Origin: Cladosporium halotolerans
Taxonomy: Eukaryota
NCBI RefSeq assembly: GCF_011745625.1
Contig: NW_027191453.1
Location: 992,001-1,056,000, forward strand
Direction of reading: 5' to 3'
Length of the DNA: 64,000 nt
Below the pieces are notes generated by a model. The model was not told where the DNA came from. It did not search any database and saw only the letters and a program-made list of their open reading frames with translations. A program made the position numbers and the translations under genes. Positions 10,864 to 61,316 of this stretch are shown piece by piece (the first letter of the stretch is position 1; each line of letters starts with the position of its first letter).

Positions 10864-12232
10864 CTAAAGCTCCTTCTCACCAGCCTTCCCACTACCAACC
10901 TTCCCATTCACACTCCCATTCACCTCCACCATCCCAGCCGCAGCCTTCTTCTTCCTCCTCTCCGCCGGCAACCTCCAACTCGTCTCCCAACCATACAGTG
11001 CCCCGCTGCCAAACACCAGCGCCGACCCCAGCACCATCAGCGGGCTCAGGCGGTGCCCGAAAATCACCGTGCTGAAGATGAAGCTCACGAGCTTGCGGAT
11101 GTTCAGCACGATCGTCACCGTGACCGCCGAGCTCTTCGCCGACAGCAAGTTCACGCCCGAGATGCACGCCAGCTGCGCGAGGGCGTTCAGCAGCAGGAAC
11201 AGCACGCCCTGCGGCATCGCTTCCGCGACGGCGAGGGCTTGCGAGAGGAGCGCGTCGGTTGCGCTGGCGCCTGCGATGCCGGCGTGGGGCGCGTAGGGTT
11301 GCAGGTCGAGGGGCGGCGTGGAGGCGAGGCGGCTCCATTGGCTGCGCAGCGTGCTGGAGATGGGCAGGAAGAGGGGCAGCGCGAGGAAGTGCGAGTAGAA
11401 GAGGTTCTCGGTCCAGCTGGCGCCGTATGCTGCGTAGGTGTCTTCGACGTACGCGCCCATGTAGGCGGAGAGGGATTGGGCGATGAGTAGTATGGCGAGG
11501 CCGGTGGTGAATTCGGCGTTTGAGGCATTGGATTCGACTTTCATGGCTTTGCCCTGATTTGCGTTAGGATGTTTGCCTTGAAATGTTCCTTAAACAGGTC
11601 CGACACGCACCTTGCTTAGCGAGTCTGCCCAGGCGCTCACAAGCACGCCGACTGTCAAGATAGCGACGCTGCCGACTTGCAGCTTTGAGTACCGCTTGCC
11701 TCTAATGACGCCGGCAAGCATCGTCGTGACACTGCCAAAACTGCGCAGAATGATGTGCACTGGCACGGAGATGTTGAAAGCGAATGCCCAGTTGTTGAGC
11801 ATGTTGATGCTATAGAACAGGAACGCGATATACGCCCATCGCCACATTGGAACGCTGCCTTTGCCATTGTTGCTTTTCGCGTTGGCGGCGAAGAGAGGTG
11901 CTGGGCTTGCGGTCACGCTAATGAAGGCGAATTGGAGGAATGTGATCAAGAGGCCTGTGGTTTGTACATCAGAAATTTTGTACCGTACAAGTTGCCCATG
12001 TGATCGTGATATGTTCATACCGCTGTCTGGCTCATTCCTGTTGCATTGCTGTCAGCTTGTCTGCTGTTTCGAGATGGATTTTTCGACGAACCTTATTATT
12101 CCTTCGAGAGCGAAGACCTGTATACAGTCAGTCATGTACTTGGTTAGAAAGTACCAAAAGTCTAGTTACATTACTGCAGCATCCGCCGAAAATGAGCCCA
12201 ACGACGCTCACTGGCACGAGGACTGATGCCAT
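10864..12232 (-). CDS. YEA4: UDP-N-acetylglucosamine/nucleotide-sugar transporter (UAA family, SLC35B4-like), ~379 aa
   Basis: Spliced N-terminus LIFGGCCSN|VFALEGII, plus NNWAFAFNISVPVHIILRS, WTENLFYSH and VTIVLNIRKLVS. Exons are 12170-12232, 12092-12117 (26 nt), 12021-12037 (17 nt), 11611-11954 and 10864-11553. Confidence 0.92.
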
Positions 12233-12629
12233 TAATGGAAACGTCTCCTGTACGGGCTGAATTTGCTACGGCCTGGTGACAGGTCGCAATTGTTACAACA
12301 CACTCGCAATCTCTGGTCACATCAATTTGTTCGACGCTCGATGAAATGAAAATGATTGAATTTGTGCTGATACGTGCTGTTGACCGCGAACCCCAGCAAT
12401 CACAAGGCTGGCAGGGGCGTGACGCCGGACGCCAAGGCCAGACGTTCGGAATGCCTTCACAACAGCGGCAGCTAAGGTGTGCCGTACCTTATTGTTCCCT
12501 CGCCAGATCTCGAAAGCAGGCTGGTTCAAGTGCCTTAGGGACTTCGATAATAACCTGAAAACGTGTTTTGTATCGATCAACAGATTTTCATCCGATCACG
12601 GTTGACAATCACGCCCAAGGACCCTAGTC

Positions 12630-13230
12630 CAACCACATCAACAATCGCAAACACACGTCCCTCACAACTTTCCCATACCCGCCCTTCGCTTCGACAAGCG
12701 AGCATCACGGCAACCCGGCCATAACCCTACACTACACGCCCCTGTCAAATCTCAATGTGCATATGTATACTCCACCCCACCACCTGCACCAAATCTCCCC
12801 ACCCCTGCCCCCCATCACGGAAAAACTCCCCTCCAGGCCCCCCAGCCAGCCAGCCAACGGACCGATGACGAGCTCGCCTCTAGACTTTCGCGGTCCACGA
12901 TCGGCTTGAGAGCAAGATCGCGGCTTTCGTCCGCCCCTGCAGGAGGAGCCGAAAGCGAGGCAGGCGAGTCGTCAAGCTCGCTTGCGCGCCGACCCACCCT
13001 CGCGCGTGCTTTTGGGGCAAGTCCTCCGTTGTCCCGGCTGTTTGGGTTTGACGGTTTATGCCAGTGGGTTTTGGGTTTGTATTGCGTGCTGTGAAGATAG
13101 CTGCGCTAGTGCTGGGTCGTGCGAACTTAGGGAGAGCGAAGCGAGGAGGGGTTGCGCGATTTGAGGATGCGGCTGGATGTTGCGCTCATGGAGCGTGTTC
13201 TGTTGCGGATGGGTTGATGTCGAGGTTTTG
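12630..13230 (-). ncRNA. Candidate long structured non-coding RNA of unknown class (rod with branched head)
   Basis: Nested complementary segments found by eye: 12635-12642/13213-13220, 12686-12693/13137-13144, 12720-12739/13103-13121, 12855-12861/13025-13031, 12866-12879/12962-12974 and 12923-12929/12950-12956. TATAAAA lies on the minus strand at 13256-13262. No credible long ORF. Confidence 0.5.
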
Positions 13231-13308
13231 CACGAATCGTGGGTCAGACGCAAAGTTTTATAGATTCCGGCAAAGCGGCAGCCATCAGAATTCGACCATC
13301 GAGCTTCG

Positions 13309-13391
13309 GGTTCTATAGTGTAGCGGTTAGCACTTCGGATTCTGATTACATCGGCCTTCCGGCAACCCCGGTTCGATTCCGGGTAGGACCT
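13309..13391 (+). tRNA. tRNA-Gln(CTG) with an 11-nt intron
   Basis: Acceptor stem GGTTCTA/TAGGACC, D-arm with TAGCGGTTAGC, anticodon stem TCGGA/TCCGG, anticodon CTG at 13342-13344, intron 13346-13356, T-arm CCCGG-TTCGATT-CCGGG, followed by a T-rich Pol III terminator. Confidence 0.95.
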
Positions 13392-14109
13392 TTCCTTTTG
13401 CTATTCCTAGTAGCGAGTGCAGCACATGTTATTTTGCATGCCGTTTGTGTTTTGCAGGCCATATGGGGGCATGGGTGCGTCATGGGCCATTGGATTCTGG
13501 CTAGAAGCTGGACATGGAATGCACGCACACGACGCATACGCAAACTCAACCCAGGATTAGGGCCAAGTAAGACACCAACATGTTGGCCGAAACATGGTGC
13601 TCCGATCCACAGAAACAACTCAACAGTCACGAGTGACGGAAGACAGACAAGAAGTCACAGTCCGAACGAATTTTCTTTTTCTGAGCGCGCAGCCGCCGTG
13701 CAATAATGTAAGCTAAAGTTAAGGTAAGGTACTCCCACGTCAAAGGCGCACGGGCTGCCGCCGCGCGATGCGATCGATCGACAGGAAGGTAAGGAAAGGA
13801 AGGAGAAGGGAGAAACAAAGCAAGCAATGGGACCCGTGGGCCTTGAAGGGATTTTGCGGTCGTCGACAGGAGAATTGAGAAGGGAAGGAGAATCAACGCC
13901 ATATTCGCCGGCTCGGGGACATCCTCCTGGGCGGTGTTTTTTGGGGGAATTGGCAAGAATAGAGGGAAGGAGAAAGTTACGGGGGTTGCCCGCCCATACC
14001 CAAGGCCATAATGGGACACCGATCCGATCCGTGAAAGACAAACGAAAAAGAAGAAGACGGAGCAGAGTGCAAGTTCATCATGCTCGTTGGGACGACGGAA
14101 TAGACTGCG

Positions 14110-17100
14110 CTACGCAACGCCCATTGCCCGGTTCTGGCCCCGCGAATCCCAATTCTTTCCCTGCTGCTGTCCACCGTTCCTGGTCGGGCTCCCGCCGTGG
14201 CTTTCTGTGCTGCCGTTGTGCTGCGTGTTGTAGGGCAAGTTGGGAGCGTGCAAGGCGCCCGAGGAGCCTTCGGCCGCGACGGCGCGGACGGAGCTCTCGT
14301 TGCGCCAGGCGTCTTGCTGGTGCGGGTCGGTGTCGACTCTGGTGACAACGGGTGTACCGCCTGCCGTTCCGGAAGAGCGTGGAGGGTGTTCGGCAATCTC
14401 GTGAGGAATGGAGTTGCCGACTGTGGGCGCTTTGGCGCGGTCACCATAGCGCTTGAGGATCTCTTTCGTGGTGATCTCGGCATTGTTTGACCACAGGCCG
14501 GAGTCATTGAGAATGAGGGCAAGATCTTCGGGAACCTATAACAGATGTGTTAGTAAAGTCATCGAGATTAGGGAGCTAGGAATTATGAATGACATACCTC
14601 ACACATGCTTTCGTTGCACTCAATCAAACTGTGCACGGCCTCAATGGCCAAGAATGTCTCGTCCACGCCGTTTTCGGGCCTGTTCTGCCTAGGTTCATCT
14701 TTGTATGGCGAGTAAAGAACATTAGGCGTAATAACTGTAGCCAGGTTGTGGATATCCATCTTGCTGCCGGACTCTTCATCGACGTGACTGAAAGAGCTCA
14801 CCCAGTTCAGAAACGTGAACAGGACTTCCAGAGTATCACGATGCGCTTTGGGTAAGAGACAGCATGTCAAGTGGAGGAGTCGCCTCCTGCGATCTGCTTC
14901 CTCGATTCGCTGCGATGTGATCCAGAGCTTGAACAGCTTGTGAGTGAGCAACGGATCCGGCAATTCGCGCAGGAACTTCTTCAGTAACGCAGCCACCTGG
15001 ACGGGGTTTTCTTTGCTGAGGTCGACCTCAACTGCACCCTTGAGATCGATTTCAGCTTTGACGTCGTTAAGGCGTTTAATATTGCCGTTTTTGCGGAAGA
15101 CACCTTCAACCGACATGTCCATCGTCTTCATCGCGCTTACTGCTTCTTGCACCAGGCTTGGTACTTTGAGCGATCCTGGGCCAACGCAGTCTGTACTCTC
15201 CTCATAGTCTCTTTCGAGAAGCTGCTCAAGCGGGATGCCGAAGATGGCGTTCTTTGACGCCTTAGCTTTCTTTTCTTTCGGAGCGAAAGCCTTGCCGAAC
15301 TTGCTCCAAAAGGTAGGTCGCTTTGTCTCGATGAGATCCAGCAGCTCTTCTTGATTGAAAAACCCATCGAGGAGAGGTTCCATCGAGAGCACAGCGACGT
15401 GTCGTACGATGAAATATTCGAGAGCAGTCAGCTCCGAGAAATATCTCTTCGTGCCAGCAAGTCGAACATCGCCACCTAGGCCAGGTTTGTCTTCATGGCT
15501 GAGGTCGCGCGATCCAGAACCTTTTACAACCTTCAGCTTGGGTTCCTGAGGTATCATGGGCTGGCGGGCAAATCGTGAAGCGTTGGGCCTCTGCTCCCTG
15601 GTTTGCTGGGCTTGCACGATGCGAGGGATGTCGTCAAGGGTCATCGTGTCCTGTCTGCCGAAAGTGAGTTGCGATGTGAGTTCTCCTTTGGAATCGCGAT
15701 CCTCGACGATCTGAAAGGTGCCTGTCTGCCTTCGGTTTCCGCCGTCAGCAGAGCCGGGTCGCATGCCTTCCGGGCCGTCGATGATCCTTGACGTACGCGC
15801 TTGTCGTCCGGCATTGGAGAGATGTTTGTCCATTCTGGTGCTTCGAAGCCGTCGGATATCACCCATGGTGTCTTCATAGTCGTTTTGTTGTTTGTCAGAG
15901 CCAGACCGTCCAGCGTAGGATCGTGACCTCGTGTTAGAGCGTCGAAGGGGCGGTTCGCCCTCGTTACTCGGAGTATGACCCTCCCTTGAGTTGTAGTCTC
16001 CAAGATTCGGATCGTCGCTGGTATGCGGCAGAGCGCCACTAGTCCTAAGAGTGGCGAGCAGTCGCGCGTGTGCTACTCTGAGTAGATGGACGTATTGCTG
16101 CAGCCTAGTGACTGACGCAAAACCGCCTGCCCTCGCTTCCGCTGGAGCGTGAACATCGCAGAATATGCGTCCGTTCGCCTCGTTCTGACGAGCTGAGCCC
16201 GGGTCATCACTGAAATCTTTGCCGCACTTCGAACAGGTCAGACACTGTGTGTGAATCACGCGGTGATCTTTGCGGAAAGACTTGTCCTCGACCGCTTTGT
16301 TGCACACCGGACATGTGTCAGCGCTGCGGTCCACGTACGCATCGGCGTCGGCTTTGGAGTCTCGGTTGCTTTCAGCCTCTAGACAATCGTCCAGTCTGCC
16401 AATGTCGCTCAAAAAGCTTTCCAAGCCCTCGGCATTGCGAGTGTCACGCTCGAGTTTGAGAGCGCCGGACAAGCAGATGCGAATCATGAGCTTCAGGTAG
16501 TGGGCCAGACCAGTCACCAGAGAGAGTAGTTCTTGAGTTACACCAAGCCTCCGAACGCCGGTGTCTTGGCTCTCGGCCAATAGCTGAAAGAACGCAACAA
16601 CCTTCTTACAGAGGAGTTTGGCTTCTCTGCTGTAGCTGAGACCTGGGTGCACGATGGCGTCAAATGTTCGCACGCCTTTGCCGGGTGCGTTGTTCGCTGG
16701 CCGATTCTGCAGACGATGATCCAGTGCGTCGGCAGCGCTGAAGAGCAAATCGACGTGAGTGATGAACTTCTTAGCCGCAACAACTCCGTCCATATACGCT
16801 CCGTTCGAGACGTGAAGAAGCATGTCCGAAATGCAAGTCGCTGACCGCTCCTCGAAAGTCGACAAGGTCTGCCAGATCCAGTGCACCTTATGCTCGACGG
16901 CTTCCTCTTCGTTTCGTACGTTGCGGCGCACCTCCTCATTCGCGTCTTCATCCTTCCTATCGTCGCCTGGCTGGTCGCCTTGCTGTTCTGAAGCGTCTGC
17001 ATTCTTTGAAGGCGGCGCGTGTAGCCTGACATTCCAGTACTTGTGAATCATATAGCACTCCGGGTGCCAGTGCTGATTCACACCATTGCGGAAGATCTCG

Positions 17101-30868: not shown

Positions 30869-31608
30869 TTACTTCTTCTCGTCCTTCTTCATCAATGAAT
30901 CAGCATACTCAGCAGGCCCATTGTCAGCCTGCTTGCGTTTCTTCTCTATTAGCTCATCGATCGCGGCCTTGCTCTCCGGGCTCATCTCGACTTCGCCATC
31001 AGCCTCGTTCTCCGCAGGATCCACGGCCGCCAGACAGACAGCGATGGCAAAGTCGGCCTCGTGACTGATACTGACTTGGACGATTTGCCCAGTCTCATCC
31101 TCGTCAATCTCGGCATGCGGCTGGAGATGCAGTTCCGGTTTCTGAGGGAGACGGCCGGGATGTGCCGGCCGATCCAAAATGACGCCGAAGACGTTGGCCC
31201 CCTTCTTGTGTCTGCGGACCTGGACCTCGCTGTAAACGAGTTTCCGTTGCGAGACCGCTTTTATCATGGCTTCCTTCGCGGCCCATCTATAATGTCGCCG
31301 TGTTAGTCAACCGAGACTGTGGCCCCTTGGACGCGGCTGTTGCTCACTCACCTGCCCGCAAGATGAGTTGAGACAATCTCCAGGGTTTTGTCTTGTGGTG
31401 ACCGCCAGTATCTACCGTCAAGGCTGGATGCCTCCTGCAGCGATTTCCCGAAACGCGCGTAGAATTCGTGCTGCTCGCGAGGTGTGAGGAGTCTCTTTAG
31501 GAATTTGGCGAAGCCCATGCGGTTTTGCACGAGTTTCGCGATGCGGGGCACATGGATGATGTCGGTTCCCACGGAGAGATTTGGTAAAAAGGGACGGAGT
31601 TTCGGCAT
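30869..31608 (-). CDS. PPT2: AcpS-type 4'-phosphopantetheinyl transferase (mitochondrial holo-ACP synthase)
   Basis: VGTDIIHVPRI, HLAGR|WAAKEAMIKA and VSISHEADFAIAV. Intron 31287-31351. Confidence 0.88.
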
Positions 31609-31996
31609 GTTTGAGCAAAGAGCGAATGAGATCGTTGGACGTACTCGTAACTTTACCTATACATTACAGGCAAAGACGGGTGCGGAGCGGAGGTGGATAG
31701 GCGTCACGTGATTTCAAGGGAGTTTGGCAGCGGTATGAGATGGTCAGATGACTTATCGAGCGTATGGACGACAAAATCGATTCTGTTGGAACAATAGATC
31801 ATGCATAAGGACTCTGGAAAGCTGCGTGGTTGATCGAAGCAGATGCTGCCGCTTTAAGGTATATTTACAGGTGAGCTCGTGGTTGACTCACGTGACTCTG
31901 ATAGTCGAATTCACAGAATCAACCCATTGAAAGCTCTACAACGGACACATCTTCTCCATCTGAACACCATCTCAGAGCCAAGGTCAATAGATAGAC

Positions 31997-40834: not shown

Positions 40835-42117
40835 TCTTCGTCCATTGATGCATCCGCGTTATGTGATTGAAGTATGTAGCGTGGGAGAGAACGGATAATG
40901 TAGATACGAACTCGTAATACAGGAGTCGTTGTGATGCGAAGCACCCCGATCACGAACCGTGTTCCTTCAAACGCCACCATGCCGCTGTCTCCGACCCGTC
41001 TGCGACGTGGTGTAGTTTGACGCCTGTGCCAGTACATCACAATATCAAAAGACCTTTCATTACAGCGCGCCCAAGATTGTGAGGCGAGAACGGGTGATGC
41101 ATTTGCCAAAAGGCGAGACCGGGGCCTCACCAACTGCACGTAGCTAAGTTATATCCGCAACGACAGACAGACAGACGCTCTCACAGGCAGTCACTAACGC
41201 TACACGACACCCGGAAAAGCGGCAACCAAAGAAATAGAAGGAAATGACACTAATACACAGGCGAAGCCGCCCTTTTTGCTCGTTAAAGACCCGACTACCA
41301 ATCTTTCCGCGCCGCCGTCCCGATCCGTGACATTTTTCAGGGGCCGCCCTTCTTGCTTCGTTTATCAGATCGCCTGCCCTGGCGTCACCTAAGAGAAAGA
41401 CGGAGGAGTGAATGGTAAAGTTGATCAAAATGTCGAGAGATGGCCCGCGCTGTTGGCAGTGCGTTGCATTTGAAGGGCGCGGACCATTTCTGAGAAGTGA
41501 AGAAGGAATAAGTAATAGAATTCGTACACGTCGTCAGAAGTTCTGCTCGTAGAATAGAAATGCCTTGCCGTGACCGCGATGGGAGATATTAGAGGTAGAC
41601 CTGTAACGACGGGAGAAGGAAGAGATGCGGTTCGGGTTCCACCAATGCCGAGATAGCGTGCTTCATTCTTTTTTGTTTTTGCTTTGTTTTTTTTGTTGTC
41701 CGTTGAGATGATCTTCGTTTTGTGATTCCGCGGCGAGACAACTGGGATATCTCGAAGCCGGGACGTGAAATTCTTGTAAATGAGGTCGTGAGGCGTCCTT
41801 ACTCGTGAAGTCTTTGTGGAAGTCGGGAGTGAGTGGCTCTTGATTGTGTTCTGGCGTCGCTGTTTCTTTTTTGTGCTCGATGCGTATGCTGCTGTTCGTG
41901 TGTGCGTATCCGTGAAGGCGCTATCGTATTTCAAAAGGCGTAGGTTGAATGTGAGGCTCATCCTTCTCACTCCACTCATGTAGCGCCTGCGCTCTTGGGC
42001 GTGGAGCCGGAGCTGATGGTGTGCAATGGTGGTGTCGATCGCGGCAGATGGGCCGGATGTAAAAACTTATGCCGCTCAGCGCTAAGAAGTACGAATGGCA
42101 AGATTGCTGTACAGCGC

Positions 42118-43735
42118 TTAGTGGCAGCCAGTTTGGAGATCCGGGTAGTACCCGCGACTCGAATCGACGCCTTGGAAGCGGCCGATACCACTGGCAGAAT
42201 ACTGCGCGCCTGGAATGGCATCCGAGTACTCAGTCTTGACTGCGTATTGGCGCGGCTCAGTGGAGAAACGAGCATTGCTCTCGATCTTTCCGAGCGGCGG
42301 TAGTTGGGTCGGCATGCCTTCGTAGATAGTACTTGGGTAGTACTGGTATCCGCTGTGCTCATGTAGTGCAAGTCGGTCGGCGTCCGACATCACGGTTTCA
42401 ACTGGGTATCCGTCCACCGGTCCGCCGTCAATGCTTGACGAGCTGCTACCCGAGTGGCTGCCCGGGTCGCCTAGGGGTATGCCGAGGCCATAGTGGTTGG
42501 CCCGATAGCCGTTAATCCCCCCATTACCACCGCTGTAGTGACTCCCGGCACCGCGGAACCCGCCTGCATTCATGGCACCGAATGAAGCGCCGCCGGTGCT
42601 ATATCCTCCACTGGAGCCGGTCGATCCACCTCTGCCAGAAGTGCCGTTTTGACCCTCATTCTGGTAATGGCTCGGGGATCGTCCTCGGACGACGATCTTC
42701 TCACTCACGCGCTGAGCGATTTTGACCCATGACGGCGTGTCGTTTTCGCCTTTTCGTATGTCCACGAATAGCTCAACCACGAGATGAAAATACTGCTGCG
42801 AAGCACGTCTCTTCCCGTTGTTTGCGGTCGCCTGTTTGAACTGAATTCGCTCAAAAGTGTGGGTAGTCGAAGAGCCTGGGAGAGGAATGTGCGCGGCGCC
42901 ATTGCTGTTCATGTTGAACTGACTCATGGTCGGGGTCGAATCGGGCTGCGAGAGAGATGTGTCGTCCGGCTTACTCTGGAAGGGCAGAATCGGGCCGGGA
43001 GGATGACCAGTGGCATGGAAGGTGTGCATGGGAACCTGATAGACTCCGTGCGGAGATATTGTCGAATCCATCCTTCCAGTCGGCGTGGGAGAGACTTTCG
43101 TCACGTCGATCTTGTTCTTCGGGCCAGCATCGCGTTTAGGGGTATGCTGGACAAGTTCGATCGATTTGCCTTGCGAGCCGTCTACGGCAGCGGACAGGCG
43201 CATGCCCATGGCCATTACCTGCTCGGTGTGATTGTTGCGCTTGATGGTCAGGCGACCATTGCTGATGTTGGGATGAAGCTCGAAATGGCAGTTGACCGAG
43301 AAATAGTTGCGTCGGTAGCAAGTCCATTTGTCGTCAACGGTAGACAGGAAGAATCCTTTCTCGACCTTTGCATGAACTTCCGGTGTGACGGGCATGTCGC
43401 CGCAGTGGAGTTCAAGCAAGACCTCCAGATTCGGCCAGGGAAAGCTCAGGGACTCATTCTGCATACCACCGTAGGCGTGTGCGCCCGGCGTAGCCATGTG
43501 TGTTGGGCCACTAGATGGGACACCTGTCAAAGATAGGCCTGCTGCTGCGGCCGTGAGAATGCTTCGGGAAGGGTCTGCGTAGTGCGGGTAGCTCGATTGA
43601 ACACTCGGTGAGAGTGCGTTCCGAGCCAAATATGGTGAAGCGTTTGCGTACACGTCGCGATCGGTGGCATTCGTGGCGCCTGATAAAGGCGAACGCGTCG
43701 AGGGTGAGAGTATGCTTTGTGTTGAGCCGTCTAGT
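42118..43735 (-). CDS. Ndt80/PhoG-family transcription factor (main exon; 5' exon(s) and start unresolved)
   Basis: KGFFLS...WTCYRRNYF, LVQHTPKRDAGP, FERIQFKQATANNGKRRASQQYFHLVVEL and IVVRGRSPSHY. An upstream intron at 43736-43815 indicates additional 5' exon(s). Confidence 0.88.
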
Positions 43736-60737: not shown

Positions 60738-61316
60738 GGCTAGGGGTTGTAGGTGCGCGCGTGGGCGCTGAGGACGTGGCGTCTGGCGATGGTAATGCGA
60801 CTAGGCGCGAGCGAGTGTGGGAGTGCGGTCAGGGTCGTTTGTCGTGTGTTTGCTGATTTGGGGTGGTTGGCGGGCAGGTGGGCAGCGTGTTGTGAAGGTG
60901 GTCCAGGCGCATGAATCCACGCAATCGCCCTGGGGAGGCGATTCCTTGGCCCGCTGAGCCCGCTGGAGACCCGCTGAATTGGGCCTCCAAGACTCTCTAG
61001 TGCGCGAAAGGGTCTTGCGCGATGCATAAATAGCTACGCTAGACTTGACCTAAATGTATGGGTATGGAAGGCTAGAATGCGAGCTTGGTATTGCTTCATC
61101 ACTAGGTATCGGTCTTTTTTCGCGTCGATGGCACTTTGAATCGCTGAGCAATTGCTGAACATCCTTCAGGCACGGCCCCGCACGCTCAGATTCCTTGGAT
61201 GGACATCGGAGATTATGACCGTGAGAACCACAATTGAACGGATGACTGGTATTACTCATGTGCTTATTACTTCGCGAATATGCGATTCGATCCACTTTTC
61301 TCCTAGTGCAATCGCT

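Follow-up and report, generated by a model that had tools for sequence, protein, structure and literature searches.

A rod-shaped fold upstream of a YEA4-type gene in Cladosporium halotolerans is probably a by-product of base composition

The spacer upstream of a YEA4-type nucleotide-sugar transporter gene in Cladosporium halotolerans can be drawn as an RNA rod of about 600 nt with a branched head, but it is probably not a structured-RNA gene. We put the probability at roughly 60% that the rod is a by-product of the composition of the spacer and that the spacer gives rise to a low-level upstream or 5'-extended transcript of YEA4 that starts from a TATAAAA box. (The strand and the start site of this transcript, its continuity with YEA4, and any regulatory effect are what we infer.) The fold is what would be expected by chance, its shape follows from composition, and it is not widely conserved, which together argue against a dedicated structured RNA.

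We analyzed a window of 64 kb from C. halotolerans (NCBI RefSeq assembly GCF_011745625.1, contig NW_027191453.1, positions 992,001-1,056,000), and all coordinates below are positions within this window. The genes around the spacer are:

10864..12232, minus strand: intron-containing gene for a YEA4-type nucleotide-sugar transporter (UAA family); two exons match Pfam's UAA family (1.8e-41 and 1.4e-29)
13308..13392, plus strand, pointing away from the candidate RNA: tRNA-Gln(CUG) gene with an intron (Rfam tRNA, 51.2 bits; coordinates from ARAGORN)
14583-17051, minus strand, upstream of the YEA4-type gene: RhoGAP/LIM gene (Pfam RhoGAP, 1.6e-38)

The candidate RNA (12630-13262) occupies the spacer between the tRNA-Gln gene and the YEA4-type gene. 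The YEA4-type gene begins with an ATG at 12232 on the minus strand, which is also where its alignment to 7 related loci begins. The initial annotation identified the adjoining tRNA as tRNA-Gln, and the cmscan alignment agrees: the anticodon loop reads UUCUG and is followed by a 13-nt insertion, which gives Gln(CUG). ARAGORN, when run in bacterial mode, reports Arg(tcg) at 13308-13392, and the cmscan alignment identifies this as a misread. In DNA-like sequencing runs, the tRNA has about 10-20 times the depth of the sequence on either side, and many contigs exit from it with differing flanks, so this tRNA-Gln(CUG) belongs to a multi-copy gene family. Contig depth in the DNA-like runs suggests that the spacer itself is single-copy.

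The rod that the initial annotation drew by eye does form in silico. On the minus strand, ViennaRNA's minimum-energy fold for 12630-13230 is rod-shaped and ends in a branched head, and the proposed helices are present in the sequence. Helices 13220-13213/12642-12635 and 13144-13137/12693-12686 are both paired at 8/8 positions, and 13040-13034/12853-12847 is paired at 7/7 positions, with one G-U pair. A longer helix, 13121-13103/12739-12720, is where it was said to be; its arms are unequal in length (19 and 20 nt), so it must contain a bulge, and the earlier reader counted 3 G-U pairs in it.

The rod is no more stable than shuffled sequences. Its energy is -236.0 kcal/mol, as compared to -234.1 ± 8.9 for 20 dinucleotide shuffles (z = -0.21, with 9/20 shuffles as good), -233.1 ± 6.9 for 100 global dinucleotide shuffles (z = -0.42, 35/100 as good), and -233.9 ± 7.4 for 100 shuffles within blocks of 50 nt (z = -0.29, 39/100 as good). 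The same stretch on the plus strand has z = +0.21. The initial annotation had named a folding z-score near zero as evidence against a structured RNA, and near zero is what we found for the rod, with the proviso that such z-scores are blind to functional structure whose energy is thermodynamically unremarkable. More broadly, none of the rod, its head, or the stretch that is covered by RNA contigs has a folding energy that is clearly below that of dinucleotide shuffles. It had also been proposed that the G-U pairs favor the minus strand. The minus strand does fold more stably (-236 vs. -211 kcal/mol for the plus strand), but the means for the shuffled sequences differ likewise (-234 vs. -213), so the advantage of 25 kcal/mol is compositional.

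The shape of the rod also has a simple origin. The two halves of the spacer have opposite skews:

13000..13250, minus strand: C-rich, G-poor half, which forms the 5' arm of the rod (plus-strand GC skew of +0.32 to +0.49)
12600..12850, minus strand: G-rich half, which forms the 3' arm (plus-strand GC skew of -0.40 to -0.63)

Long-range pairs that join the two halves account for 111 of the rod's 203 pairs. If we shuffled the sequence within 50-nt blocks, which keeps the C-then-G gradient, there were 94 ± 13 long-range pairs, and 10 of the 100 shuffles reached 111. With global shuffles, there were just 34 ± 22 long-range pairs, and 0/100 reached 111. Because the block shuffles recreate the pairing between the arms and the global shuffles do not, the rod shape follows from composition. 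The initial annotation had cautioned that the C-then-G skew inflates chance pairing; by the block shuffles, this is the full explanation of the rod shape. The candidate's rod-likeness is at the upper end of what its composition yields: besides ranking with the top tenth of the block shuffles, it has more long-range pairs than any of 9 other C-then-G stretches in the window that we folded likewise (0-81 pairs). The general caution is that, where a GC-rich genome switches between patches of opposite strand skew, any C-rich stretch with a G-rich one after it is bound to yield an impressive rod of nested helices, and only shuffles that preserve local composition reveal that such shapes come free.

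As to the cause of the skew, we rejected a rule that 5' leaders are C-rich and 3' trailers are G-rich. The RhoGAP gene is C-rich (on its own strand) 3' of its stop codon, and several runs of skew lie inside long open frames. In the G-rich half, six runs of 4-6 G are clustered in about 70 nt (12775-12843, minus strand), and there is a canonical motif of four G3+ runs at 12684-12659 (minus strand). Judging from these motifs, the G runs could form a G-quadruplex in competition with the rod, either in RNA or in the non-template strand of the DNA.

The head of the rod deserves separate consideration:

12845..13040, minus strand: GC-rich head (about 65-66% GC) with balanced skew; minimum energy of -91.8 kcal/mol

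The predicted fold of the head retains its outer helices, two of the three proposed hairpins, and the UGACGACUCGCCU/AGGCGAGCUCGUCA helix; the third hairpin is absent. Folding the head by itself yields an inner structure identical to that within the rod. The head alone might be a real small structured element, or a protein-binding RNA domain, within an otherwise unstructured transcript. Its centroid structure is the same as its minimum-energy structure, its z-score on the minus strand is -1.54 (with 11/200 shuffles as good), just 2 of 152 arbitrary 196-nt stretches from the window have such a low raw energy, and the block that contains it can still be aligned in a relative with about 85% identity (see below). 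However, the low energy goes with the head's GC content of 66%, and 17 of the 152 stretches, taken from the minus strand of this window, have z ≤ -1.54. On the plus strand, the head's z-score is -1.33 (20/200 shuffles as good), and such similar values on the two strands mean that there is no strand-specific signal. Also, a pair in the helix that closes the head is mismatched in close relatives (see below), no Rfam family matches the head, and nothing similar is found in 22 related loci. When we built a covariance model from the single sequence of the head and searched the window and the 22 loci, it matched only itself; the best non-self match had E = 2.1 and was downstream of the gene. Overall, we consider a functional element in the head to be very unlikely. 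Elsewhere in the window, minus-strand stretches at about 42001-42196, 60901-61096, and 31501-31696 had z-scores of -3.96, -3.76, and -3.69 (with 20 shuffles each).

The initial annotation reported no motifs from known RNA families, and our searches bear this out. We compared both strands of 12300-13500 to the 4227 models in Rfam 15, and even at E ≤ 10, the only match was the tRNA (RF00005, 13309-13391). Across the whole window, nothing but the tRNA reached Rfam's gathering score. For box C/D snoRNAs, we looked for the C box (RTGATGA), and 0 of the window's 17 matches lie in 12364-13300.

We also rejected coding and repeat readings of the spacer. An open frame of 162 codons (12606-13091, plus strand) has no relative among candidate proteins of 89-284 residues, and an open frame of 86 codons (13058-13318, plus strand) does not match any Pfam family. 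For an open frame of 48 codons, a diverged relative has single-base deletions within it, at 12797 and 12813. The short open frames in the spacer encode proline-rich or glycine-rich sequences, which are products of the skew. We found neither long direct repeats nor long inverted ones (at best, an inverted pair of 26 nt with 73% identity), and the spacer has the same depth as the flanking gene, so we rejected a repeat, a transposon, or a solo LTR.

To compare the spacer across close relatives, we aligned contigs from four public sequencing runs to 11900-13500. The spacer is covered by three of the runs (X1, X2, and X22), with an identity of roughly 97%. A more diverged relative, which is about 85% identical, is represented by one contig from X1. 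In this relative, 12589-13116 (528 nt) can be aligned, with 63 differences and 14 gaps, while 12281-12423, 12519-12589, and 13116-13201 no longer align (the first two were replaced or have diverged). That 12589-13116 still aligns while three neighboring stretches do not makes constraint on the spacer possible. Another stretch is better conserved:

12423..12519, minus strand: block that is 96% identical in the diverged relative (4 differences in 97 nt, X1)

This block sits 70-170 nt above the proximal end of the YEA4 mRNA (see below). It is probably a conserved core or an upstream element of the proximal YEA4 promoter.

Most of the listed substitutions at paired positions in the close relatives break the fold's pairs. 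Our test was restricted to 40 listed differences out of 195 over 1.6 kb, and 14 of the 40 fall in the rod. Of these 14, 11 are at positions that are paired in the minimum-energy fold: 8 of them break the pair, and 3 are one-sided changes that keep it. Among the listed substitutions, there was no two-sided compensatory change on one contig. For example, contigs from all 3 of the runs that cover the spacer have C instead of G at 13038, which breaks the pair G13038-C12849 in the head's closing helix, and there is no change at the partner (12849) among the listed differences. Positions 12776 and 13123 are partners that both vary, but they do so on separate contigs, so they do not demonstrate compensation.

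For more distant relatives, we used 22 YEA4-type loci from metagenomes (48-76% protein identity), which we found by using one YEA4 exon as the query. In nucleotide comparisons (blastn), similarity stops at the ATG in all 7 of the loci that align that far, and no similarity upstream was found in the 22 loci at E ≤ 1e-3. For the same 22 loci, nhmmer found one weak and composition-biased match, and tblastx found weak matches, mostly to the proline-rich frames of the C-rich arm (best E = 6.6e-05). The tRNA was found in 0 of the 18 distant loci that we scanned, and the RhoGAP/LIM gene was found in 0/22 (by tblastn), so the syntenic interval with YEA4 is absent at that distance. By these sequence comparisons, the spacer element is not conserved beyond close relatives. 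The initial annotation had asked for conservation and covariation in relatives, and its proposal of a novel structured ncRNA fails on the z-scores, on conservation, and on the lack of compensation among the substitutions.

What some of the distant loci share with the window is a switch in skew. Upstream of YEA4 in the window and in two distant loci (L005 and L011), the gene's strand is C-rich at about -1000 to -800 and becomes G-rich at about -700 to -400. The switch is partial in L001 and absent in L003, for a total of 2-3 of 4 distant loci. There is no sequence similarity among the window and the distant loci in this region, and two of the loci (L001 and L005) are relatives of one another. 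The G-rich part in L001 is around the end of an open frame that lies upstream on the same strand. The shared switch may be due to chance, as the window itself has about 12 such switches.

The skew switch bears on the possibility that the rod as a whole functions as a long hairpin (either an ncRNA or a Dicer substrate that yields milRNAs or siRNAs) and that selection maintains its composition instead of its individual pairs. Besides the switch at 400-1000 nt upstream of YEA4 in those distant loci, this would fit the size of the fold-back (-236 kcal/mol), its being more rod-like than 9 other skewed stretches, and the coverage of most of the spacer in a run that contains cDNA (see below). In contrast, the z-score is near zero, 8 of the 11 listed substitutions at paired positions break pairs, the ends of the RNA coverage (12364-13172) do not match the ends of the rod, and the switch is weakened as evidence by the relatedness of two of the distant loci and by the many switches within the window. 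The helices are also a poor fit. Neurospora milRNAs derive from hairpin precursors that are Dicer substrates, and the spacer would resemble these as a Pol II-type transcript that folds back on itself over a long stretch, but its stems are short and interrupted. The gap-free helices that we checked are just 7-8 bp, the 19/20-nt helix is bulged, and the fold is no better than shuffles. Short, interrupted helices are poor substrates for Dicer. This counts against the Dicer or milRNA precursor that the initial annotation had suggested, and we view a functional hairpin of either type as highly improbable. It is likewise highly improbable that the spacer encodes a discrete ncRNA of about 0.8-0.9 kb whose C-then-G arrangement is kept by selection on composition, so that a long hairpin always forms, and whose fold or G runs control YEA4 or feed RNA silencing. 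If this were true, then the C-then-G switch upstream of YEA4 in some distant fungi would be the same device without sequence conservation.

If the spacer is not a structured-RNA gene, is it transcribed? The features that bear on this are:

12364..13172, unstranded: colinear, unspliced contig of 808 nt from X2 (25 differing letters and 1 gap)
12233..12353, minus strand: putative proximal 5' leader of YEA4-type mRNA, which is short (to the end of a spliced contig from X2)
13256..13262, minus strand: TATAAAA box (putative promoter element)

Runs X2 and X6 include YEA4 contigs that are spliced across introns (three introns in X2), so these runs contain cDNA. The 808-nt contig suggests that most of the spacer is probably present as low-level RNA in a close relative, on the strength of a single unstranded contig from one run. 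Within X2, the mean word depth is 5.8 for this contig and 55.3 for the mRNA contig, which are rough values and not expression levels. No contig bridges 12354-12363, between the 808-nt contig and the mRNA contig. X2 does not cover 13196-13303 or 13412-13500, and X6 does not extend above 12329, and we count these gaps neither for nor against transcription. If the RNA-covered stretch (12364-13172) is folded as RNA, then z = +0.45. Thus, of the initial annotation's suggestion of a structured leader for YEA4, the leader or upstream transcript gains support from the 808-nt contig in a cDNA-bearing run, but "structured" does not hold.

The spliced contigs end at 12353 in X2 (followed by adapter letters) and at 12329 in X6, while DNA-like contigs continue beyond these positions. 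This is a weak hint that the proximal 5' end of the mRNA is about 100-120 nt above the ATG, as the ends of contigs cannot prove the end of an RNA.

The TATAAAA box that had been noticed at 13262-13256 on the minus strand is indeed in the sequence. TATAAA is rare, with 7 occurrences in the 64-kb window (both strands combined), and the one at 13262-13257 faces YEA4. The TATAAAA box could act as a distal promoter element for Pol II, giving an upstream transcript on the minus strand. It also lies 46 nt before the 5' end of the mature tRNA-Gln, on the opposite strand. In fission yeast and in plants, Pol III uses TATA elements that are upstream of tRNA genes. Perhaps, then, the box serves the tRNA-Gln gene, Pol II does not transcribe the spacer, and the 808-nt contig is genomic DNA that was carried over; after all, it is one contig of low depth from one run. 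But the perfect TATAAAA reads on the minus strand, and the plus strand reads only TTTTATAG. Carry-over also sits poorly with the YEA4 introns in X2, which are joined across by the sole contig there, with no unspliced contig on them. We consider this combination to be quite unlikely.

Alternatively, the RNA over 12364-13172 might be from the plus strand: if the YEA4 promoter is bidirectional, it would also give off, as a by-product, an unstable divergent RNA (promoter-upstream antisense) in the direction of the tRNA gene. The contigs are unstranded, the low end of the 808-nt contig (12364) is 11 nt from the end of the mRNA contig (12353), and the stretch begins C/A-rich and finishes G/T-rich when read on the plus strand too. 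On the other hand, we saw by eye no TATA-like element in that direction near 12300-12364, and the perfect TATAAAA faces the minus strand. Divergent start sites are typically 100-200 bp apart, so 11 nt would be too close. A divergent transcript is unlikely on this evidence.

Under our preferred explanation, which is a compositional rod and a probable low-level transcript on the YEA4 strand, any RNA or single strand from a spacer that is C-rich distally and G-rich proximally would fold into a long imperfect hairpin. The TATAAAA at 13262-13256 would drive a weak distal start on the YEA4 strand, and the minus-strand RNA would read through the spacer and either approach or enter the proximal YEA4 promoter (with a putative 5' end near 12353). 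There are 9 ATGs from 13225 to the start codon, 8 of which are above the proximal 5' end (to 12354), and the upstream open frames have 4-42 codons. With 8 upstream AUGs, a 5'-extended or upstream transcript would be poorly translated. Upstream transcription could also dampen the proximal promoter by interference, via either a LUTI-like mechanism or an upstream-transcript mechanism.

Both mechanisms have precedents in yeast. Transcription of the non-coding SRG1 from upstream of SER3 interferes with the downstream promoter. By analogy, if an upstream transcript on the same strand as YEA4 ended at its promoter or ran across it, then this would fit with the upstream contig's ending 11 nt from the mRNA contig. 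LUTIs (long undecoded transcript isoforms) of budding yeast are 5'-extended mRNAs from gene-distal promoters, which are poorly translated and repress the proximal promoter (PMC8153250, PMC8829799). The YEA4 locus resembles these in having a possible distal promoter at the TATAAAA, roughly 900 nt upstream of the proximal 5' end, probable RNA coverage in between, and 8 upstream AUGs. It differs in that the coverage is unstranded and no contig joins it to the coding region, and in that the genome is of an intron-rich, fungal type. The residual biology would be modest: tuning a gene through a distal TATA promoter whose transcript is laden with upstream AUGs is common and has been described before.

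The YEA4-type gene itself includes a microexon of about 15-16 nt (12022-12037, minus strand) within the intron span of 11956-12090. The reading frame requires 16 nt, so the positions of the joints are ambiguous by one base. In spliced contigs from both X2 and X6, the joints at 11955 and 12091 are separated by an identical sequence of 15 letters.
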